Below are positions 6,190-61,807 of a stretch of 64,000 bases of DNA, in pieces. The position numbers were made by a program, and so were the translations under genes. The stretch is from positions 32,001-96,000 of the forward strand of contig CBDBLV010000001.1 in assembly GCA_965207225.1 (NCBI GenBank). Direction: 5' to 3'. This DNA comes from Dehalococcoidia bacterium (GTDB taxonomy: Bacteria; Chloroflexota; Dehalococcoidia; Plut-88900). The notes beneath the pieces were generated by a model. It saw nothing but the letters and a program-made list of their open reading frames with translations. It had not been told where the DNA came from and ran no database searches. How positions within the stretch are numbered: position 1 is the first letter of the stretch; each line of letters starts with the position of its first letter.

Positions 6190-6333
6190 CCCCCAGTACC
6201 GAACTAGAGGCCGACGTGGGTGTAGCGCACCCACGTCGGCCTCTGTTCTTCTCTTCCCCTCTCCCTTATAGGCCCTAAGAGCCTGCCCCGAGTCCCTCGA
6301 GGGGGAGAGGGGGATCAAGGGGGTGAGGGTTCC
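6190..6333 (+). repeat. CAGTAC-AACTAGAGG variable-hairpin repeat, copy B (small insertion in second hairpin)
   Basis: Same scaffold as copy A; directly precedes non-coding unit 1. Confidence 0.85.
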
Positions 6334-6377
6334 CCTATGGGGTCGAGGGGCATCCCCCCAAAGCCGCACATTTGCTC

Positions 6378-6406
6378 TTGACACACCTGTCCGACCGTAC
6401 TATCAT
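6378..6406 (+). promoter_or_regulatory. Sigma70-type promoter of non-coding unit 1
   Basis: TTGACA-N17-TATCAT. Confidence 0.7.
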
Positions 6407-6411
6407 GTTCT

Positions 6412-6975
6412 GCGTTCGGTCGAATACAAACTCACGTCATCAAAGGAGGAACCAAAAACCTAGGGAAGCCCACCCGACCCCACGGGTCCCGTGCCCCTTC
6501 CCCATCCATCCAGGCGATGGAAGGTCCATCTACTCTACGCGGTACACCCCTTTCCAGGGGCCTCTACCGAATCGGTGCTCCCTATCTTGGGACGCCTATG
6601 TCGCTGGCAATGGCTTGCCGGCGAAATTCTAACGGCCCGGCGTTACCGGGATTAGGGCCTCAGAGCCCCTACGCGGCTCCACTGCCGTCACCGTCCGCGG
6701 ACTCCGTTCCGCCCATGACGGTATCGAGCCGAATGCTGTCCCGCTCAGCGGTCGAGCGCTGATACGGAGAACAGAAGTCCCCGCGCAGAGACACCCTCGA
6801 CAACGGCAAGTCTCCCAAGGCATGCGTGAAGGGAAAGGCAGGACAACCGCCGATGCCACCAGCGTCGGCGTAGGTGCCATCGAGGTCCTGCATCCGAGTC
6901 CCGGACCTTCCATCGCCGACCCAAAACCCAACAGGCAGAACAAAATGCAAACCCAAACCCCACAACACAACATCC
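6412..6975 (+). ncRNA. Putative structured ncRNA unit 1 (undescribed family)
   Basis: AAAGGAGG at 6442, CACGGGTCCCGTG hairpin at 6481, closing IR GGCGATGGAAGGTCC (6513) / GGACCTTCCATCGCC (6903-6917), A/C-rich tail. No credible ORF. Transcription is inferred. Confidence 0.5.
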
Positions 6976-6983
6976 CCTCCCTT

Positions 6984-7130
6984 CCCCCCAGTACTGAACT
7001 AGAGGCAGAGGTCGGCGCTGTTCTTCTCTCCCCCTCTCCCTTCCCCCCAGTACCAAACTAGAGGCAAGCGCCTGCGCCATGGCGCAGGCGCTTGCCTCTG
7101 TTTTTTCTTCCCCCTCTCCCTCAGGGCCAT
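6984..7130 (+). repeat. CAGTAC repeat copy C (collapsed hairpin) and copy D (left part, interrupted by IS481)
   Basis: Two tandem CCCCAGTAC..AACTAGAGG starts. Copy D resumes at 8400-8440. Confidence 0.8.
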
Positions 7131-8399
7131 TGTATAGACCGGGGACATAGGTTACACATGTTCGGAGACATAGGTTACACCATTAGGCATAGCGATTCTG
7201 TAAGAGGAGGGTTTCTATGCCATGGAAGGTTGGAACGGTCATGTCTCAACGGGAAGAGTTTGTGGTCCTGGCCCAGTCCGAGGGTGTGAACATGAGTGAG
7301 CTGTGTCTGCGCAGCGGGATCAGCCGTAAGACCGGCTACAAGTGGCTGAGACGATACCTGGAAGGGGGTAAGGGGAGTCTGGAAGACCTTTCCAAGTGTC
7401 CCCATCACTCGCCGAACCGCACCAGCGCCGATATGGAGCAACTGGTAATAGACCTTCGAAGGGAGTTCCCCACCAAGGGGGGTCATGTGCTGGCCAAGAT
7501 GCTCAAGGACAGAGGGTACGGCGGTGTACCGGCCAAGAGCACCGTCACAGCCATCCTCAGTCGACATGGACTTATAGAGCCGGCCCAGAGCCTCAAGCAC
7601 AAGCCCTACCGCCGCTTTGAGCACCCCCGGCCCAACGACCTTTGGCAGATGGACTTCAAGGGACATATACCCATGTCCAGTGGTGGAAGATGTCACCCTC
7701 TGACGATCCTCGATGATCACTCCAGGTTCTCCCTGGCTGTAAGGGCTTGCCCAGATGAGAAGACTCCCACGGTCCGTGGCCACCTCACCTCTGTATTCCG
7801 CCGTTACGGCATGCCCGTCACTATGCTGGTAGACAACGGCGCCCCCTGGGGCCACGACCTCTACCATCCCTTCACGCCCTTGACCGTCTGGTTGCTGCAA
7901 CTGGGAGTCAGGGTGATCCACAGCAGACCCCACCACCCCCAGACTCTCGGCAAGCTTGAACGCTTCCACAAGTCCCTCAAGAGCGAACTGCTCCAGGGAA
8001 GCATCTACACAGACCTGCACCACTGCCAGGGCAGCTTCGACACCTGGAGAGACTTCTACAACCTCCAGCGTCCTCACCATGCCCTGGACCTCAATACCCC
8101 CTCCAGCCGATACACCCCCAGCCCCCGGCCCTTCCCCGAGGTCCTGCCTGCCATCGAGTACGACACCAATGACCAGGTGCGCAAGGTCGACGTCAACGGC
8201 CGCATATGGTTCAAGGGCAGAACCTTTAAGGTGGGGAAAGCCTTCCGAAGAAAGTGTGTCGCCCTTAGACCCGGGTCCAAAGACGGCACGTGGAAAGTCT
8301 TCTTCTCCGTACAACCCATTGCTACCATAGATCTAAGTAAGTAGGAAATGTGTTACCTATCTCCCCGAACAACTGTTACCCTTCTCCCCGGTCTATACA
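7131..8399 (+). mobile_element. IS481-family insertion sequence
   Basis: Terminal IRs TGTATAGACCGGGGA...TCCCCGGTCTATACA with internal repeated binding sites; single DDE transposase ORF. Confidence 0.92.
7217..8344 (+). CDS. IS481-family DDE transposase
   Basis: MPWK start, HTH (GISRKTGYKWLRRY), LWQMDFKG, LDDHSRF, VDNG, HPQTLGKLERFH. Confidence 0.95.
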   Translation: MPWKVGTVMSQREEFVVLAQSEGVNMSELCLRSGISRKTGYKWLRRYLEGGKGSLEDLSKCPHHSPNRTSADMEQLVIDLRREFPTKGGHVLAKMLKDRGYGGVPAKSTVTAILSRHGLIEPAQSLKHKPYRRFEHPRPNDLWQMDFKGHIPMSSGGRCHPLTILDDHSRFSLAVRACPDEKTPTVRGHLTSVFRRYGMPVTMLVDNGAPWGHDLYHPFTPLTVWLLQLGVRVIHSRPHHPQTLGKLERFHKSLKSELLQGSIYTDLHHCQGSFDTWRDFYNLQRPHHALDLNTPSSRYTPSPRPFPEVLPAIEYDTNDQVRKVDVNGRIWFKGRTFKVGKAFRRKCVALRPGSKDGTWKVFFSVQPIATIDLSK

Positions 8400-19014: not shown

Positions 19015-19091
19015 GCCCCTATCGTCTAGCGGCCTAGGACACCGCCCTTTCAAGGCGGAGATCACGGGTTCGAATCCCGTTGGGGGCACCA
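19015..19091 (+). tRNA. tRNA-Glu (TTC)
   Basis: Acceptor stem GCCCCTA/TGGGGGC, anticodon arm CCGCC-CTTTCAA-GGCGG, T-loop GGTTCGAATCC, encoded CCA. Confidence 0.95.
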
Positions 19092-34697: not shown

Positions 34698-34819
34698 CCC
34701 CCCAGTACCAAACTAGAGGGAGACACCTGCGCCAGGGCGCAGGTGTCTCCCTCTGTTTTTTCCTCCCCCTCTCCCTTAATGGCCCTAAGGGAGAGGGGGA
34801 TCAAGGGGGTGAGGGTTCC
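34698..34819 (+). repeat. CAGTAC variable-hairpin repeat, copy F
   Basis: Hairpin GAGGGAGACACCTGCGCC-AG-GGCGCAGGTGTCTCCCTC; precedes non-coding unit 2. Confidence 0.85.
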
Positions 34820-34913
34820 TCAGTGGGGCCGGGGGCATCCCCTCCCGTAGGGGCGACCGGCTGGTCGCCCTGGGGCGGGGCACATCCCCTCCCCCCAAAT
34901 GTGACTTTGCCCC

Positions 34914-34942
34914 TTGACAGGCAAACATTTGAGCCTTATATT
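34914..34942 (+). promoter_or_regulatory. Sigma70-type promoter of non-coding unit 2
   Basis: TTGACA-N17-TATATT, followed by AAGGAGGAACCAAAAACCCAGGGAAGCCC. Confidence 0.65.
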
Positions 34943-35166
34943 TGTTCTAAGTCTAGACCCGACACCAACCTTAAGGAGGAACCAAAAACCCAGGGAAGCC
35001 CCCGAGACCCGACCCGAGGACTCAACGCCCTAGCCCATCCCAACGGCCCCGCGCAGGCCCGAGGCTCAAGCTGTCGTTACCCAAGATCTTTGAGCCAGGT
35101 TACCCACGAACATTGAGCCACCCTGAACGCCGATGATACGGATTATGACAGGATGCTATCGGCGGT

Positions 35167-35961
35167 TCAATCACCTCCCTTCTTGCCGAGGATTTTGGCC
35201 ACTTTGCCCAGTAGGGCGCGGTGAGGAGAGAGCCTCTCCCGGTAGCTGGTGCCCTCGATGACGATCTGGTAGCTGGTGTTGGCCAGACGGTCCAGGGCGC
35301 TGTTGCCCAGGATGGGATCGTTGAAGAGGCCGAGCCACTCCTCGATGGCGCGGTTGGAGGTGATGACGAAGCTGGAGGCCCGATGCTTGCCGACGATGAG
35401 CTGGTAGAGGTCCGATGACTGTTGTGCGTTGAGACGGTGCAGGCCCAGGTCGTCGAGGATGAGCAGGTCGGGGGAGAGGAAGGAGCGGAAGGCTTTGTCC
35501 ACCGAGTTGTCCACCCTGGCTTGGGACATGGCTTTGAAGAAGTCGTATGCGTGGATGAAGCGGACGGAGTATCCGGCTCTGACGGCGGCGTAGCCGAGGG
35601 CCTGGGCCAGGAAGCTCTTGCCGACGCCCGCCGGTCCCATGAGCAGGACGTGCTCGTGCCTGGGGATGAAGTCCAGGGAGAAGGCGGCGTCAAGGAGGCG
35701 GCGGTCCAGGGTGATTTCGGACGTCCAGTCGAAGTCCTCCAGGCGGCAGGTCTCCTCGAAGCCGGCCCGGTTCAGGCGGGTCTCGATGCGCCGGTTCTCC
35801 CTGCGGCTGACCTCGTCGGCTAGGATGATCTCCAGGAAGGCGGCATAGTCCAACTGGTCCCTTCGGGCCAGGGCGATGCGCTCGGGCAGGGTGTCCAGCA
35901 TGCCGCTGAGCTTGAGGGTCTTGAGCAGCGGGGCCAGATCGACGTTGCGGTTGCGGGTCAT
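35167..35961 (-). CDS. istB: IS21 helper ATPase IstB
   Basis: LEDFDW, GPAGVGKS, LLILDDLG, ITSN, LDRL, GTSYR. Confidence 0.95.
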   Translation of the reverse strand: MTRNRNVDLAPLLKTLKLSGMLDTLPERIALARRDQLDYAAFLEIILADEVSRRENRRIETRLNRAGFEETCRLEDFDWTSEITLDRRLLDAAFSLDFIPRHEHVLLMGPAGVGKSFLAQALGYAAVRAGYSVRFIHAYDFFKAMSQARVDNSVDKAFRSFLSPDLLILDDLGLHRLNAQQSSDLYQLIVGKHRASSFVITSNRAIEEWLGLFNDPILGNSALDRLANTSYQIVIEGTSYRERLSPHRALLGKVAKILGKKGGD

Positions 35962-37538
35962 AGCGTAACTCCTTCGGTTGGGTGATGGCCGTTGACCAGG
36001 GCGAAGACGGAGCCGGGCCTGGCGAAGCGCCCCGGCGGTATGAGGTCGGCAAGGGGCGGCGCATCCTGCTGCTCCAGGGCTTCAACCAGGATGCGCTCGA
36101 CGCGGTGCACGTCGATGAGGTCCACGTCCAAGGCCTTGCGGCAGGCGTCGTTCAGCCGGTCGGGGGTGTAGCGCTGGGCGAGGCGGAGCAGCTTGTGTCC
36201 CTGCCGCACCTTGGCCCAAGGCGTGGGGCCTTCGAAGAGCCGGTCGGCGAAGGCGGCCACCGCCTCTCCCAGCTCCGCCGCGCTCTGCTTGATCTTGTCG
36301 GGCCCTCGCAGGGTGTAGGCGATGAACTCCTTTGGGTAGTCGTCGGTGTCGGTGGAGCGTTTGCCCCTGGGCTGACGGGGATGGACCTTGATCAGCTTGC
36401 CCCGGTGGTAGATGCGCACCAGCTTGCTGTCCAGCGCGATCTCCACCTGCTGCCCCGGAGGGCACAGGGCCGACGGCACCGAGTAGAGGGCGTGCTGGCA
36501 GGTCACGTGGTGGTCGCGCTGCACCTTGGCGTTGCGCCAGCGGGTAACCTCGTAGGGATCGCCGTCCCAGGGCAGCAACGTCTGGCGCTCCTCTGTGTCG
36601 AAGACCTCCACGGGCTTGCGCCTGGTGGTGCCGTGCACCCGCTGTCCGGCCACCTCACGGCACCAGTGGAGCGCTTCCTTCCGCATGTGAGGCAGGTCCC
36701 TGAAGGAGGCTCCCTTGAAGAAGCGCTCTCTCACGTACTGGACTCCCCGCTCCACCTTGGGCTTATCCCTGGGGTGGCGCACCCGGGCCGGGTCGGTGAT
36801 GAAGCCCCGGCGCTGCGAGTACTCCAGGAAGCCCCTGGTCAGCCTGGGGTGCAGGGCGTCGGCCCCGGCCACCGCCGCCGGGAAGTTGTCGATGACCAGG
36901 TACTTGGGTATGCCGTCGAAGAAAGCCCAGGCCGCCTCCAGTCCGGCGACCACGTCCTCCAGCTTCTGCCCGTGGGTGGGCCAGACGAAGCTGTGCCGCG
37001 AGTAGGCCAGCACCACGATCAGCGCCCACACCGTCCGGCGGCGTCCCGTCTCCGGGTCCTCCAGCGGCCCCAGCCGACCGAAGTCCAGCTCCGCCACCTC
37101 GCCCGGAGGACTCTCCTCCATCCGCACCGTCCGAAGACTGCGGCCTCGCCAGTTGCGGCGGGCCACGAAGCGCTGTAACGACGAATAGGGCACATCGCAG
37201 CCCCGCTCCAAGAGCAACTCCCGGATGCGGGTCAGTTGCAGCCGGTCCCCGATGAGCCACTGCTGAATCTGGTCGGCCCAGGGGGACAGCCTCTCCTCTA
37301 TGGGCATCTTGGTCTGCCGCGGTCCCGCACGGCCGATGGCCGCCAGCTTGCTCAGCTGCTCCTCGCTGGGACCCGGTCCGTCCCGGGACAGCCCCAACCT
37401 CTCCGCCGAGGAGATGTATTTGACCACCGTGTTCCGGGACAGGCCCGTCCCAGTCGCTATGTGGCGCTGGCTCTCTCCAGCCTGCCAGCGCCGGATGACT
37501 TCTTCTATCTCCACTCTGAGTACCTCCTTGTAGGCCAT
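35958..37538 (-). CDS. istA: IS21 transposase IstA
   Basis: N-terminal HTH, AELDFG, LVIDN, PRDKPKVER, HGTT, YSVP. Confidence 0.95.
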   Translation of the reverse strand: MAYKEVLRVEIEEVIRRWQAGESQRHIATGTGLSRNTVVKYISSAERLGLSRDGPGPSEEQLSKLAAIGRAGPRQTKMPIEERLSPWADQIQQWLIGDRLQLTRIRELLLERGCDVPYSSLQRFVARRNWRGRSLRTVRMEESPPGEVAELDFGRLGPLEDPETGRRRTVWALIVVLAYSRHSFVWPTHGQKLEDVVAGLEAAWAFFDGIPKYLVIDNFPAAVAGADALHPRLTRGFLEYSQRRGFITDPARVRHPRDKPKVERGVQYVRERFFKGASFRDLPHMRKEALHWCREVAGQRVHGTTRRKPVEVFDTEERQTLLPWDGDPYEVTRWRNAKVQRDHHVTCQHALYSVPSALCPPGQQVEIALDSKLVRIYHRGKLIKVHPRQPRGKRSTDTDDYPKEFIAYTLRGPDKIKQSAAELGEAVAAFADRLFEGPTPWAKVRQGHKLLRLAQRYTPDRLNDACRKALDVDLIDVHRVERILVEALEQQDAPPLADLIPPGRFARPGSVFALVNGHHPTEGVTL

Positions 37539-37661
37539 CGCGGCACCTCCTTATCAAGTGCTGCAATGGTCTAAGCTGGGGCGCTCAGGGTGGCTCAAAG
37601 ACCCTGGTTATCTGGCTCAATGTTAGTGGGTATTGTGGCTCAATGTTCCTGGGTATTGACA

Positions 37662-38085
37662 AAGCCGAAGGTGTTATCTCCTCAACACGGGTCCCGTGCC
37701 CCTTCCCTGCCCCCCAGGCGATGGAAAGACGTTCTGGCCTAAGCTGTTCCCGTCAGGCCTAACCCCGCAGAAGCGGGCCCAGGCCTTGCCCCAGGCGCGT
37801 TGGTGGCGCGCCAAGTGGGCCGGCGTCGATATGGCGTCCGGCGGCAGTAACCTTCCGTTCCTGCTCACCACAGGAGCAGGTATGGCCGTAACCTGATTGA
37901 ACACGGCTGATAGAATTTCATTCCTACGGCCCCTGGGCCGGTGCGCCTCTCCCCTGGGCGCATGTCTAAAATCTGCCCGAATGGGAACAGGGGCACAGCC
38001 TCCGGCCAGCGTCTTCCATCGCCGACCCAAAACCCGACAAACAGAACGAAAACCGGAAACCCCACAACCGAATAGAGACCCGGCC
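37662..38085 (+). ncRNA. Putative structured ncRNA unit 2, 3' part (5' part about 34948-35071; split by IS21)
   Basis: CACGGGTCCCGTG at 37686; closing IR GGCGATGGAAAGACGTTCTGGCC (37717) / GGCCAGCGTCTTCCATCGCC (38004-38023); A/C-rich tail. Confidence 0.5.
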
Positions 38086-38181
38086 TGCCGGGCAGACCCC
38101 CACCCTTCCCCCTCCCCCCGACCCGGTGATAAAATCACCTTTGGCCCTCGGTACTCCCTTTAGCTAAGGTGTCTGCCTCTC

Positions 38182-41079
<2,898 letters not shown>

Positions 41080-58592: not shown

Positions 58593-58713
58593 CCCCCAGT
58601 ACCAAACTAGAGGGAAGCGCCTGCGCCATGGCGCAGGCGCTTCCCTCTGTTTTTTCCTCCCCCTCTCCCTTACAGGCCCTAAGGGAGAGGGGGAGGAAGG
58701 GGGAGAGGGTTCC
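58593..58713 (+). repeat. CAGTAC variable-hairpin repeat, copy H
   Basis: Hairpin GAGGGAAGCGCCTGCGCCATGGCGCAGGCGCTTCCCTC; precedes non-coding unit 3. Confidence 0.85.
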
Positions 58714-58815: not shown

Positions 58816-58844
58816 TTGACACATCTGTCCGGCAGTACTATCAT
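58816..58844 (+). promoter_or_regulatory. Sigma70-type promoter of non-coding unit 3
   Basis: TTGACA-N17-TATCAT; context nearly identical to 6360-6406. Confidence 0.7.
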
Positions 58845-58849
58845 ATCCT

Positions 58850-59640
58850 GCGACAGAACAAATATCTCACTATCAAAGGAGGAAACCAAAACCCAGGGAA
58901 ACCCCCGAGACCCGACCCAAGGCATCGCCCCCGAGAAATCGGGGGACTCAACGCCCTAACCCATCCCAATACCTATCTCCTCTCTTGTAGGGGCGACCGG
59001 CCAATCGCCCCCCTTGCGAGGCAGGCAGGTTGCGGCACAAGCGACAGCGTTATCCCCGAGACGTCGGGGACGCCACCTCCTCATCCCACGGGTCTCGTGC
59101 CCCCTTCCCTGTCCCCCGGGCGATGGAAAGACGCCCTGGATAGAAGCCAAGCAGACCGGCCATCCCCCGCCGAGAGACCGTCTCGGAGGTCGGTCTGTAG
59201 CGAACTTGCGCTATATCAAGATAGGGGTGGCGGGCTGGCTAGCCCCGCTCCGGACAAGTTACCGGTGGTTGGCCCGTCGGCGAGCTTACGCCACACCGAA
59301 TCAAGCATAACCTGGGGTCGCTGGGGCACTCGGGACCTGCGGGTGCGCCACGTAATAGAAACTCCCGGGGGCTAACGGCCCGATCACTGGCCCTCACTGC
59401 GCCCTGAGGGCGCCTGGGAGCGGGTCAAGGCCCGGCTGTCCGCCCGAACAGCCGGAGCACAAATCGAGCAGAAGGGTGCGGCCGGCTGCAATCCGCCCCC
59501 GGCGGACCTCCATGGCCCCGGACAGCTGGAACACCGCATGGTAGGGACCACCGGCTCACCAGGTGCGTCTTCCATCGCCGCCCCAAAACCCAACAGACAG
59601 ACCCAAAACCCGAAACCCCACAACTGAATAAAAACCCGGC
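58850..59640 (+). ncRNA. Putative structured ncRNA unit 3
   Basis: AAAGGAGG at 58875, CACGGGTCTCGTG at 59087, closing IR GGCGATGGAAAGACGCCCTGG (59119) / CCAGGTGCGTCTTCCATCGCC (to 59579), A/C-rich tail. Confidence 0.5.
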
Positions 59641-59842
59641 GTGTCACCAGCCTTCCGAACGAGTACACCCCTTGAACCCGACACCCAACACCCTGTACAA
59701 TCGCCCCCGCAGCCGACCGCGAGCGGCGGTAAGCATCTACCGGGCAACCCTACAAAAAGCCCAATGGCCGGTATCATCGGGAACCGGACCGGGCGCTGAA
59801 TAGCATCTTGTGAACCCTCGCGGTCGGTTTGCGAGGGTTTTG

Positions 59843-60817
59843 TTGTACGACACGATAACCGACGTACCCGGCATCCGGGTGGGCCACTACACTGACTCCG
59901 AGGCCGTCACCGGCTGCACCGTAGTCCTCGCCCTTGAGGGCGCAGTCGCAGGCGTCGACGTACGGGGTGCGGCCCCCGGCACCCGTGAGACCGACCTCCT
60001 CCGACCCCTCAACCTCGTCCAGGAGGCCCACGCCGTCGTCCTCAGCGGTGGCAGTGCCTACGGTCTCGCTGCCGCCGACGGTGTGATGACCTGGCTCGAA
60101 GAGCAGGGAGTCGGCTTTCCCGTGGGCGTGGGTGTCGTTCCTATCGTCGCCTCCGCCATCCTTTTCGACCTCGCCATCGGCGACCCCACCACCCGCCCCC
60201 GCCCCGAGCACGGCTACCAGGCCAGCGCTGCCGCCGATTCTTCCGCCCCGGCCCAGGGCTCCGTAGGTGCAGGCACGGGCGCAACCGTAGGTAAGGCCCT
60301 CGGCCAGGAACGCGCCGTCAAGGGTGGCCTCGGGTGCGCCAGCCGACGCGTGGGCGAATACACCGTCGGGGCCCTCGTCGCAGTCAATGCCCTCGGCAGT
60401 GTCGTAGACGCCGAAACAGGTGAAGTCATCGCCGGCCCCCGTGAACCGAGCGGTCTCGGCTTCCTGGACAGCGTAGACATCCTGGAAGACGTGAAGACTC
60501 CCGTTGCGGCCTCGGCCCTCCAGAACACCACCCTCGCCGTCGTCGCCACCGACGCCCCTCTCACCAAGGAGCAGGCCAACAAGCTCGCCCAGATGGCCCA
60601 CGACGGACTCGCCCTTGCCATCCGACCCGCCCACACCATGTTTGACGGCGACGTCGTATTCGCACTGTCCACAGGCAAAGCCGTCCCCGTCCCCGACGTC
60701 ACCCCCTTCGGCGCCGCCGCCGCCCGGGCCCTCAGCAGCGCCATTGTCAAAGCCCTAACCCACGCCTCTAGCCTCGGAGGCGTCCCCTCAATCACATGCC
60801 TAAACCAGAACTCGTAA
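59843..60817 (+). CDS. P1/S58 (DmpA-like) aminopeptidase
   Basis: ITDVPGIRVGH, VDVRGAAPGTRETDLL, LSGGSAYGL, NTTLAVVATD, HTMFDGD. Start uncertain. Confidence 0.9.
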   Translation: MYDTITDVPGIRVGHYTDSEAVTGCTVVLALEGAVAGVDVRGAAPGTRETDLLRPLNLVQEAHAVVLSGGSAYGLAAADGVMTWLEEQGVGFPVGVGVVPIVASAILFDLAIGDPTTRPRPEHGYQASAAADSSAPAQGSVGAGTGATVGKALGQERAVKGGLGCASRRVGEYTVGALVAVNALGSVVDAETGEVIAGPREPSGLGFLDSVDILEDVKTPVAASALQNTTLAVVATDAPLTKEQANKLAQMAHDGLALAIRPAHTMFDGDVVFALSTGKAVPVPDVTPFGAAAARALSSAIVKALTHASSLGGVPSITCLNQNS

Positions 60818-60970
60818 CAGGGAGAACACAGAAGAATCGGGGTGTGCAGAGGGGCAGCGCCCCTCGCCGGGAGTCTGAGGGTGTCCCTCAGAATAACTTC
60901 TTTTCTCCCGGGGTGGGGGGCCATGAGAAAGTGTCTAAGCATCCTTCCATAGGTAGCAAGGAGAGTCGTA

Positions 60971-61807
60971 ATGCGTAAGACCACTGCGTCCATCATCAAG
61001 ATGAAACGGGACGGTGAGAAGATCCCCATGCTCACCGCCTACGACTATCCTACCGCCAGAGCCCTCGACGAACTGGGCATCCCCATGATCCTCGTCGGCG
61101 ACAGCCTGGGCATGGTAGTCCTCGGCTACGAGTCCACCGTCTACGTCACCATGGACGACATGGTCCACCACACGAAGGCCGTGGCCCGGGGCGCCAAGCG
61201 CTCCCTCATCGTCTCAGACCTCCCCTTCATGAGCTACCGATGCGGCAACGACGAGGCCCTCAAGAACTCAGCCCGGCTCCTCCAGGAGGGCGGCGCCCAG
61301 GCCGTCAAGATGGAGGGTGGGGTCTCGGTGGCCGACACCGTCCGCCATATAGTCGAGAGTGGCATCCCGGTCATGGGCCATATTGGCCTAACCCCTCAGT
61401 CGGTGAATCAGCTCGGCGGGTACCGCATCCAGGGCAAGACCCCCGAGAAGGCTGCCCAGCTACTCCGCGACGCCAAGGCCCTTGAAGACGCTGGAGTGTT
61501 CTCCATCGTACTCGAATGCGTCCCCGCCCCCCTCGCCCGACTCATCACCGAGCGCGTTTCCGTCCCCACCATCGGCATCGGCGCAGGAGCCCACTGCGAC
61601 GGCCAGGTCCAGGTCATCAATGACATCCTCGCCACCTGCCCCGACTTCACCCCCCGCCACGCCCGCACCTACGCCTCCATAGGCGCCGCCACCGCCGACG
61701 CCATAGCCCGCTACCGTGACGACGTCCGGTCCTCCCAATTCCCCACCGATAAACAGAGCTTCAACATGGATCCCAGCGTCCTCTCCGAGTTGATGCAGTA
61801 CGCGTAG
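60971..61807 (+). CDS. panB: 3-methyl-2-oxobutanoate hydroxymethyltransferase
   Basis: MLTAYD, LVGDSLGM, AVKMEGG, MGHIGLTPQS, TIGIGAG..CDGQVQV. Confidence 0.97.
   Translation: MRKTTASIIKMKRDGEKIPMLTAYDYPTARALDELGIPMILVGDSLGMVVLGYESTVYVTMDDMVHHTKAVARGAKRSLIVSDLPFMSYRCGNDEALKNSARLLQEGGAQAVKMEGGVSVADTVRHIVESGIPVMGHIGLTPQSVNQLGGYRIQGKTPEKAAQLLRDAKALEDAGVFSIVLECVPAPLARLITERVSVPTIGIGAGAHCDGQVQVINDILATCPDFTPRHARTYASIGAATADAIARYRDDVRSSQFPTDKQSFNMDPSVLSELMQYA

Follow-up and report, generated by a model that had tools for sequence, protein, structure and literature searches.

Intergenic repeats of the Correia, ERIC, REPIN and BIME type are 30–160 bp long and have terminal inverted repeats, which can be RNase III substrates when transcribed, and Correia elements make a TA duplication. 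Integron gene cassettes are interchangeable cassettes expressed from a fixed promoter. The nearest described concept to the element reported here is that of putative mobile promoters (Nijveen, Matus-Garcia and van Passel 2012; PMC3575422), which are similar noncoding, promoter-bearing repeats lying upstream of unrelated genes; their mechanism of movement is unknown, most of them have no Rfam match, and intergenic repeats of the Correia, ERIC, REPIN and BIME type are named in the same study. Here we describe a composite unit that is found three times in the window, a 64,000-nucleotide (nt) stretch of the genome of a Dehalococcoidia bacterium (G000:C1:32001-96000; the genome, G000, comprises 4.03 Mb in five contigs). 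Genome comparisons indicate that the unit is a genus-specific, high-copy modular cassette whose cargo appears to be a conserved structured RNA encoded on the strand of its own promoter, and the cassette sits against the promoters of core genes and in their orientation. We lean, if only slightly, towards the view that the units are self-contained modular expression cassettes for structured RNA, with the cargo RNA as the functional product. In the main texts of the open-access literature on mobile promoters, intergenic repeats and noncoding RNA of Dehalococcoidia and Chloroflexota, no described counterpart of such a cassette was found.

Each unit consists, in this order, of a sigma-70-type promoter module, a leader, a small hairpin, a C-rich box, a closing stem that encloses a cargo of 200–550 nt, and an A/C-rich tail, and the whole composite is 600–1000 nt long. 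A sequence-only reading of the window had picked out these parts in three loci, and all of them are present there in the same order and at the same coordinates (Table 1), namely the promoter TTGACA-N17-TAT(C/A)(A/T)T, the leader AAGGAGGAA..AGGGAA, the hairpin CACGGGTC(C/T)CGTG and the stem-bounded segments of 405, 307 and 461 nt, whose inner stem parts are complementary. The promoter sites of units 1 and 3 match the consensus at 11 of 12 positions, compared with 0.3 such sites expected in shuffled sequence. The second copy is split by an IS21-family insertion sequence (IS), as had been noted; the cut lies in the leader, and Pfam identifies IstB and IstA in the insertion. The number of copies had been put at three, but the genome holds 41 units and a further six (family F) with a different leader.

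The closing stem, GGCGATGGA(A)/(T)TCCATCGCC, flanks the cargo, and its 10-mer occurs 105 times on the two strands of the genome, compared with 9.4 occurrences expected from composition, so that the frame is not a product of chance. A profile search of the genome with the regions immediately before the stem (head) and immediately after it (tail) gave 48 head and 41 tail matches, which pair into the 41 units. The stem is 15–21 bp long and exists in two types, GGCGATGGAAGGTCC or GGCGATGGAAAGACGYYCTGG, and its first 9 bp are identical in 40 of the 41 units. The tail is about 55 nt long and rich in A and C, with C abundant and G scarce. The leader AAGGAGGAACCAAAAACCCAGGGAAGCCC is nearly invariant and carries a Shine-Dalgarno (SD)-like AAGGAGG about 40 nt past the -10 element; no ATG, GTG or TTG follows at proper spacing, and copies differ by 1-nt indels directly after the box. 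Between the SD-like box and the stem lie 70 to 308 nt, depending on the unit, and this difference in leader length is due to inserted small hairpin repeats of the families CCCCGAGAnnTCGGGG, GTAGGGGCGACCGGnnnnTCGCCCC and GTCATTCCCGAnnnnnnTCGGGAATCC, which are also found in intergenic DNA.

The six F-type units share the closing stem with the others and have a fourth promoter (extended -10, TGcTATACT) and a leader of their own. The 5' end of their cargo is B-like, and their leader contains a true SD box and an ATG. The short open frame that starts there (MSRTSL...) reads into the stem, and its ATG is ACG in one of the six copies; the frame may encode a leader peptide or represent an ancestral form. 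A unit with an F-type leader is also found in the gyrB upstream region of G004.

Family A units (named after their cargo, see below) lie before genes that are not paralogues of each other, including rpoB, nusA, leuS and katG-like and moaA-like genes, and have stretches of 50 nt or more in common with an identity of at least 80%, as putative mobile promoters do; this comparison was run without the authors' exact -150 to -50 window. The mobile-promoter class is, however, defined by similarity over 50–100 nt only, and its definition is silent on mechanism (PMC3575422), whereas the present units are composites of 600–1000 nt with a constant frame, three promoters and at least 14 cargos, and they leave the gene's own promoter in place, lying upstream of it. 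Like the Correia, ERIC, REPIN and BIME-type elements, some of which carry promoters and among which BIMEs are mosaic, the units are dispersed intergenic repeats with inverted repeats. In contrast to Correia elements and miniature inverted-repeat transposable elements (MITEs), the inverted repeat is internal and surrounds 200–550 nt of apparently conserved RNA structure, the promoter and leader on one side and the tail on the other lying outside it, and no duplication is seen at two pairs of filled and empty sites, where about 28 nt (nusA) and about 95 nt (uvrA) are replaced.

The frame is confined to one genus. The leader (29 nt, up to 3 mismatches) is present in nine of nine genus genomes, compared with none of 392 other genomes of the class. 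Of the genus genomes, G000 was analysed whole and the others through fetched loci. Eight of them hold 15–33 leader copies each, and the most divergent one, G004, holds two. A BLAST search with unit 1 gave 21–34 matches in each of the eight other genus genomes; three of three other genera of the family gave none, nor did 29 genomes representing 29 other families. An exact 25-mer scan of the genomes of 185,579 species returned 92 stretches, and all 80 of the 92 that were listed belong to metagenome-assembled genomes of Dehalococcoidia. A covariance model of the repeated module in family D cargos found 12 copies in G000, all within the five D units, 2–23 copies with more than 72 bits in each of six other sampled genus genomes, and two matches of about 27 bits in 144 other genomes, which we treat as chance. 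Plasmid, phage and viral-contig collections contained no match to the units, and an origin from a phage, plasmid or virus was rejected on these grounds. The single-contig genus genomes G001–G008 have an estimated completeness of 91–93% and a contamination of 4–11%; the marker-gene sets probably fit this lineage poorly.

Upstream of the leader, the 40 units that could be typed carry one of three mutually unrelated promoter modules: P-I (TTGACA-N17-TATCAT; 18 units), P-II (TTGACA-N17-TATATT; 11 units) and P-III (TTGACT-N16-TAAACT; 11 units). Short palindromes lie right past the -10 element, GTCTAGAC in all 11 P-II units and GTTCGAAC-like sequences in 10 of 11 P-III and 8 of 18 P-I units, and they may be operators. 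Promoter modules and cargo families combine freely: all three modules are found with family A and with family D, and two of them with each of B2, C, E and I.

The 40 cargos excised from this genome fall into 10 families of 1–14 copies: A (14; about 308 nt), B2 (6), D (5), B (4), C, E, G, I and J (2 each) and H (1). Across the genus, 107 distinct cargos form 14 families. The three cargos of the window, which had not been alignable by eye, are truly unrelated and are placed by clustering in families B, C and D; among the families as a whole no common core was found, with only one 9-mer present in at least four of them. Membership in an Rfam family was taken as a covariance-model score at or above the gathering threshold of that family. 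By this measure, an Rfam 15 scan of the whole window gave no match other than a transfer RNA (tRNA) gene, a search with units 1 and 3 at E values up to 10 gave nothing over threshold (the best match within a cargo scored 20.6 bits against a cut-off of 100), and 12 loci with the remaining cargo families gave two sub-threshold matches, both outside the cargos. Thus, no cargo family belongs to a described Rfam family, in agreement with the sequence-only reading. A known stable RNA as cargo was rejected, since no cargo matches Rfam and the RNase P RNA is normal elsewhere in the genome.

The cargos are not coding sequences. None of the eight open reading frames (ORFs) that overlap units has a Pfam match. 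In alignments of family A (33 sequences), B/B2 (20) and D (15), the variable columns favour none of the three phases (p = 1.0, 0.59 and 0.77, respectively), and gap runs of non-triplet length outnumber triplet ones by 38 to 10, 21 to 3 and 35 to 2. The absence of a credible ORF had been claimed for the window units, and it holds there.

Conserved base pairing suggests instead that the cargos are structured RNAs. The window cargos fold better than dinucleotide-shuffled sequences, with z-scores of -6.5 (B), -4.8 (C) and -4.2 (D), and 0 of 100 shuffles fold as well. In family D, an alignment of 12 sequences from 6–7 species gave a consensus of 112 pairs with 96.6% of the alignment cells paired, compared with 36–50% in slid controls; nine pairs (26 cells) are changed on both sides, and the covariation score was reached by 0 of 500 shuffles. 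The D cargo contains two or three tandem modules of about 82 nt, each predicted to fold into two hairpins and a 10-bp helix that has an internal loop, while pairing of CCCC with GGGG would add a pseudoknot. In 23 copies of this module, 94.5% of the cells are paired, five pairs (30 cells) show double changes, and about one cell in ten is a G-U pair, which would be an A-C mismatch on the opposite strand. Family A has strongly conserved blocks. These compensatory and G-U changes support, without proving, the conservation of a cargo RNA structure on the sense strand, and with it the earlier proposal of a dispersed cassette with a fixed frame and a variable structured-RNA cargo. The tandem arrangement of the D modules suggests that they might serve as a scaffold or sponge for a binding partner. 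When 39 whole units were folded from the predicted start to the tail, the closing stem was paired with a probability above 0.95 in all 39, and the tail had a mean unpaired probability of 0.78, compared with 0.46 overall.

The first downstream gene has the same orientation as the unit in 38 of 41 cases, and in 31 of the 33 with confident ORFs (at least 200 amino acids with a high GC content at third codon positions; binomial p = 1e-7); of the nearest upstream genes, 22 are on the plus and 18 on the minus strand. Gene calls around the units were made by an ORF heuristic. The downstream genes are unrelated housekeeping genes, among them uvrA, rpoB, gyrB, nusA, pnp, leuS, glnS, secD, a catalase-peroxidase gene (katG-like), folD, moaA(-like), lgt and rnhB, names that were read from N-terminal sequences and have Pfam backing for the window genes (e.g., uvrA) only. 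The stretch between tail and gene usually contains a promoter-like site followed by a normal ribosome-binding site, and a strict sigma-70 scan 40–200 nt past the stem found a site in 12 of 41 units, compared with 2% of shuffles. An all-against-all comparison of the ORFs within 3.5 kb of the 41 units revealed no recurrent protein partner, but only small groups of metabolic paralogues and spurious unit-overlapping ORFs. The genome has four reverse transcriptase (RT) genes (C2:158087, C5:1548409, C5:1553980 and C5:1671488), the last of which is about 16 kb from the unit at C5:1655366, the closest such pair. That the window offers no RT or transposase partner, as had been stated, is right in that no RT lies near any unit, but IS21 and IS481 transposases are present in the window. 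These two insertions are secondary and unrelated to the units; the IS481 copy is missing from the syntenic locus of the sister species G005. A system of the TnpB and omega-RNA type was rejected, since the genome contains no TnpB domain.

Hairpins with a CAGTAC motif (CAGTAC...CTAGAGG-stem-CCTCTGTTYTT) accompany many units. They had been placed upstream of every unit, which is correct for 25 of the 41 (within 700 nt) and not for the rest. A terminator-like CAGTAC hairpin follows the tail in 11 of 41 units, unit 1 included, seven of them 65–78 nt past the stem, and is absent from the other 30. With 19-bp GC-rich stems followed by T runs, these hairpins look like intrinsic terminators. They are dispersed genome-wide with variable stems, behaving as repeats of the repetitive extragenic palindromic (REP) type, and often have a CCCCTCTCCC...GGGAGAGGGG hairpin behind them, together with a stretch rich in G. 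At several unrelated loci, including one in the most divergent species, G004, the unit is closed by CGAACGAGTACAC 2–4 nt before the TTGNNN -35 element of the downstream promoter, and this sequence, at about -40 to -55 relative to the promoter of the gene, might be bound by a protein or other factor.

Comparison of sister species shows that units appear, disappear and change their cargo over the time in which species diverge. The upstream regions of uvrA, gyrB, nusA and rpoB were fetched from all nine genus genomes and scored. A unit precedes uvrA in eight of nine genomes (cargos C, A, K, J, A, D and M and one unassigned) and is absent from G004. It precedes gyrB in six of nine (B in three, B-like with an F-type leader in G003 and G004, K in G005), and two further genomes have a lone 3' stem half there. 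At nusA (A, A, A, H) and rpoB (A, A, E, J), units are present in four of nine genomes each, and the four carriers are the closest relatives of G000. In a wider sample, orthologous genes behind units (at least 60% amino-acid identity; some may be paralogues) form 21 groups, of which 13 have mixed cargo families, seven have the same and one is undetermined. A riboswitch or gene-specific leader was rejected, since the same gene has different cargos in sister species and one family stands before unrelated genes. The syntenic orthologue of unit 1 in G005 is 79% identical in the unit and 89% in the flanking gene, and IS481 is absent there.

Empty orthologous sites, which the sequence-only reading had proposed to look for, exist, for example, at nusA and uvrA. 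At the empty nusA site of four genomes, about 28 nt separate the divergent tRNA upstream region from the nusA -35 element; G000 has about 990 nt in their place, which end 1–2 nt before the same -35 and contain small repeats, two CAGTAC hairpins, a C/G-rich hairpin, P-II, the leader, an A cargo and the tail. The extended -10 region of uvrA is conserved in nine of nine genomes, including the one with the empty site. No target-site duplication was found at the filled and empty nusA and uvrA sites. At uvrA of G003, a complete unit and a terminator precede a solitary tail, the remains of a second unit that has decayed. In the uvrA units of G000, G008 and G007, the distal half of the tail goes with the locus and the proximal half with the cargo, so that the similarity breakpoints lie inside the tail, and in 19 units heads and tails are about equally similar when grouped by locus or by cargo (0.72–0.80). 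Cargos therefore seem to be exchanged by homologous recombination, with breakpoints that vary in position within the shared frame, and a site-specific exchange at the stem itself was rejected.

These observations lead to a plausible scheme of how a unit may work. The unit would be transcribed from its own promoter, P1, from a start about 40 nt ahead of the nearly invariant leader. The closing stem, with its outer 9 bp the same across families, may be where the transcript is processed by a nuclease specific for double strands, such as RNase III, the gene of which is at C4:260228-260614, and cleavage at the stem would set the cargo free as a stable RNA, much as happens in ribosomal RNA (rRNA) operons. 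The SD-like box without a start codon may protect the 5' end, either by binding of the 30S subunit, in the manner of STAB-SD, or by a 5' hairpin. The C-rich, G-poor tail may load Rho, the gene of which is present in the genome. Where no terminator stands behind the unit, transcription would continue into the next gene, for which the unit would be a second, separately regulated promoter. Units may reach new intergenic sites, and swap promoter modules and cargos, by recombination through the shared frame. A wider version of this scheme is more tentative: the genus may run a dedicated RNA-cassette system of about 20–47 fixed sites, each parked at the promoter of a housekeeping operon with a promoter/operator module, a protective leader, a cleavable stem and a Rho-loading tail, that makes at least 14 swappable trans-acting RNAs, for example multimeric scaffolds or sponges for binding partners. 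It would be the RNA equivalent of gene cassettes, and cargo synthesis would be linked to the gene next to the unit, with RNA polymerase either reading through or being passed on to the promoter beside it. This somewhat unlikely extension is held with much less confidence than the cassette itself.

Several observations weigh against a functional cargo RNA. The reverse strands of the cargos also fold better than shuffles (z = -5.4 and -3.1), so that folding energy is uninformative on strand and the strand assignment rests on the promoters and the G-U pairs. Double changes occur in only 8 of the 57 predicted pairs of family A. The covariation structures were derived from the same alignments in which they were tested, and many rows are close kin, which leaves few independent compensatory events. 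The SD-like box is mostly paired in the predicted folds (unpaired probability 0.31) with a partner that varies by unit, no constant partner being found across the folded units, and this weakens the idea of 30S binding. Family A copies are 90–97% identical within the genome over about 308 nt, and recent spread or gene conversion could give this identity without any RNA function. No binding partner or target was found for the cargos, which have just three short matches in the genome outside units, and copy 2 tolerates the IS21 insertion in its leader. We infer promoter use, RNA ends and processing alike from the DNA sequence.

Cargo RNAs acting in trans, to which we give slightly better than even weight, are not exclusive of the two readings that come next. 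It is unlikely, though conceivable, that the units mainly serve the gene behind them. Each would then be a portable strong promoter with a long processed 5' leader that tunes this gene, and the cargo would have no trans role, contributing only stability, processing or insulation. The orientation of the next gene in 38 of 41 cases fits such a role, as do the 3' ends that abut the gene-promoter -35 at nusA and at several loci with the CGAACGAGTACAC end, the 30 units without a CAGTAC terminator before the gene, and the resemblance of the three promoter modules and their distinct palindromes to regulatory inputs, and putative mobile promoters have been described before (PMC3575422). However, the genes keep their own conserved promoter, even in species without the unit, 11 units, including unit 1 of the window, have a terminator-like hairpin right after the tail, and two or three units are followed by a convergent gene. 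Compensatory changes conserve the cargo structure, for which a mere spacer would have no need, and the cargo at a given gene differs by species and thus carries no gene-specific signal. Still less probable is a chiefly selfish, non-autonomous element, that is, a large MITE-like or composite intergenic repeat without a function for the cell that is tolerated only where its promoter reads in sense into the next gene. Selection against antisense transcription can explain the orientation bias in this case, and presence/absence polymorphism between species at nusA, rpoB, gyrB and uvrA, the high identity of family A copies, the confinement to one genus, the accompanying small repeats and IS insertions and the decayed second unit at uvrA of G003 are all in line with it. 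But no cognate transposase lies beside the units (judged from the ORFs at the 41 loci), the ends of the whole unit lack terminal inverted repeats, the two pairs of filled and empty sites lack a target-site duplication, TnpB is missing and the four RT genes are at least 16 kb from any unit. The nearly invariant leader, the stem conserved in all species and the RNA-type covariation in the cargos also speak against it.

Two further explanations are very improbable. The units recall the msr-msd RNA of retrons, as the sequence-only reading had remarked, in being self-promoted noncoding RNAs closed by inverted repeats, so that the closing stem could be compared with a1/a2 of a retron-like or other RT-templated RNA, and the genome does have RT genes. 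This resemblance does not extend further, since none of the 41 units has an adjacent RT, the units far outnumber the RT genes, the cargos (200–550 nt, 10 families) are larger and more varied and exist in dozens of copies, and no retron-type Rfam match was obtained. The closing stem encloses 200–550 nt without recognizable msr or msd features. Equally remote is an origin as decayed remnants of a protein gene or a known IS. The F-type leader with its SD box, ATG and frame open into the stem could hint at a former gene, and long ORFs overlap the units, as they do in any GC-rich DNA; yet the ORFs have no Pfam match, codon periodicity is absent, the indels are mostly non-triplet, 1-nt indels stand right after the SD-like box, the ATG is lost in one of six F-type copies, and the plasmid and phage collections hold no match.

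The proposed RNA cassette resembles other systems in single respects. It shares with rRNA operons a strong promoter, a leader, a long-range stem around a structured RNA and a spacer, and a helix of about 15–20 bp or more together with an encoded RNase III, as expected of an rRNA-type stalk, is present, the cleavage being predicted. It differs from them in that the cargos are not rRNA and the 41 copies are dispersed. An rRNA-derived frame was rejected, since the flanks of the genome's own 16S gene have no similarity to it. The STAB-SD of Bacillus cry3A mRNA (PMC4113751) is a perfect SD-like sequence near the 5' end without a translation start, and the box of the units likewise lies near the predicted 5' end without a start codon; it differs in being predicted as mostly paired with varying partners, and its binding of the 30S subunit is putative. 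OLE, ROOL, GOLLD and raiA are likewise highly structured RNAs of several hundred nt with unknown function; each of them is a single family of wide distribution with usually one or a few copies, whereas the units hold many unrelated multi-copy families in one frame and in one genus, without an Rfam match. Like integron cassettes, the cargos are interchangeable under a fixed promoter. In contrast to these, they are RNAs at about 40 separate sites with breakpoints inside the shared frame that fit homologous recombination, and no integrase or attC turned up, although no search was aimed at either.

If the units are RNA cassettes, they would represent a novel organization of bacterial noncoding RNA genes, in which one expression and processing frame is reused about 40 times before core genes such as rpoB, gyrB, nusA, uvrA, pnp and those for aminoacyl-tRNA synthetases. 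They would enlarge the known set of structured RNAs by at least 14 families, all from an uncultured Chloroflexota lineage, and offer a natural design for expressing and excising structured RNAs. They would also be a case in nature where one gene acquires promoter and leader modules from another and where these modules are recombined among the species of a genus. How promoters spread, a question of long standing, would then be directly testable by comparing the nine sister genomes. Even as a merely selfish repeat, the unit would be unusually large and modular, rewiring the upstream regions of essential genes.

Table 1. Positions of the three units, their neighbours and related repeats (window coordinates unless a contig is given)
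Feature	Position	Strand	Remark
CAGTAC hairpin upstream of unit 1, terminator-like	6196..6255	+	19-bp stem 6205-6245, then T-rich run
Unit 1 promoter, P-I, TTGACA-N17-TATCAT	6378..6406	+	found by consensus scan
Unit 1 leader, SD-like AAGGAGG, no start codon	6443..6471	+	short version, 70 nt from box to stem
Unit 1 head: hairpin CACGGGTCCCGTG and C-rich box CCCCTTCCCC	6481..6503	+	head profile match; hairpin 6481-6493
Unit 1 cargo, family B, 405 nt, stem GGCGATGGAAGGTCC / GGACCTTCCATCGCC	6513..6917	+	no Rfam match
Unit 1 A/C-rich tail	6918..6975	+	tail profile match
Two CAGTAC hairpins 3' of unit 1	6980..7110	+	second clearly terminator-like: stem 7059-7100, then TTTTTT
IS481-family ORF between unit 1 terminators and next gene	7217-8344	+	rve, HTH_32, LZ_Tnp_IS481
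tRNA gene	19015-19088	+	sole Rfam match in whole window
CAGTAC hairpin upstream of unit 2	34703..34765	+	read by eye
Unit 2 promoter, P-II, TTGACA-N17-TATATT, then palindrome GTCTAGAC	34914..34942	+	found by reading
Unit 2 leader, 5' part, interrupted by IS21	34973..35064	+	
IS21-family insertion, not part of unit	35065..37660	-	ends approximate, by eye
IstB; IstA	35167-35961; 35958-37538	-	Pfam IstB_IS21 7e-58; rve and Mu-transposase C domains
Unit 2 leader, 3' part, and head	37661..37716	+	hairpin 37686-37698, C-rich box
Unit 2 cargo, family C, 307 nt	37717..38023	+	20-21 bp closing stem
Unit 2 A/C-rich tail	38024..38085	+	tail profile match
uvrA native extended -10 (TGaTAAAAT)	38127..38135	+	kept in 9/9 species including the unit-less one
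uvrA, next to unit 2	38182..41079	+	Pfam UvrA domains
CAGTAC terminator-like hairpin upstream of unit 3	58608..58649	+	
Unit 3 promoter, P-I, TTGACA-N17-TATCAT	58816..58844	+	found by consensus scan
Unit 3 leader: SD-like box, small REP-like hairpin inserts, hairpin, C-rich box	58876..59118	+	hairpin 59087-59099
Unit 3 cargo, family D, 461 nt	59119..59579	+	two tandem ~82-nt modules, ~59139-59233 and ~59218-59313
Unit 3 A/C-rich tail and 3' extension ending in CGAACGAGTACAC	59580..59668	+	
Promoter-like site of downstream operon, TTGAAC-N18-TACAAT, right after unit 3	59672..59701	+	
Peptidase_S58; panB	59810-60817; 60971-61807	+	co-oriented, downstream of unit 3 (59810..61807)
CGAACGAGTACAC sites	59656-59668; G000 units C4:508612, C4:404402, C5:1035924		also in G004
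Small hairpin repeats	58930-59075; 34848-34875		also G000 nusA upstream
F-type units	G000:C3:167328-167681; C3:255807-256154; C5:1330718-1331071; C5:1737119-1737472; C5:1005080-1005543; C5:1189888-1190351		

Three loci outside the window deserve mention. One of the three short cargo matches outside units is a 46-nt stretch at G000:C3:216515-216560, which sits at the end of a small ORF and matches, in antisense and with 93% identity, a segment of a G-family cargo; it was probably left behind by a unit and is less likely to be a target site. The upstream region of uvrA in G003 has a small ORF of the HicB-like antitoxin type at 190–450, between the divergent promoter region and the unit, which is another sign that insertions collect in these intergenic regions. 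Behind the single 16S rRNA gene, at G000:C4:510741-512337, come a hairpin resembling a terminator and a gene for a small protein, but no 23S gene, so that the rRNA genes of G000 appear to be unlinked, and a family A unit lies about 1.7 kb upstream of the 16S gene, ahead of an ORF of 479–488 amino acids.

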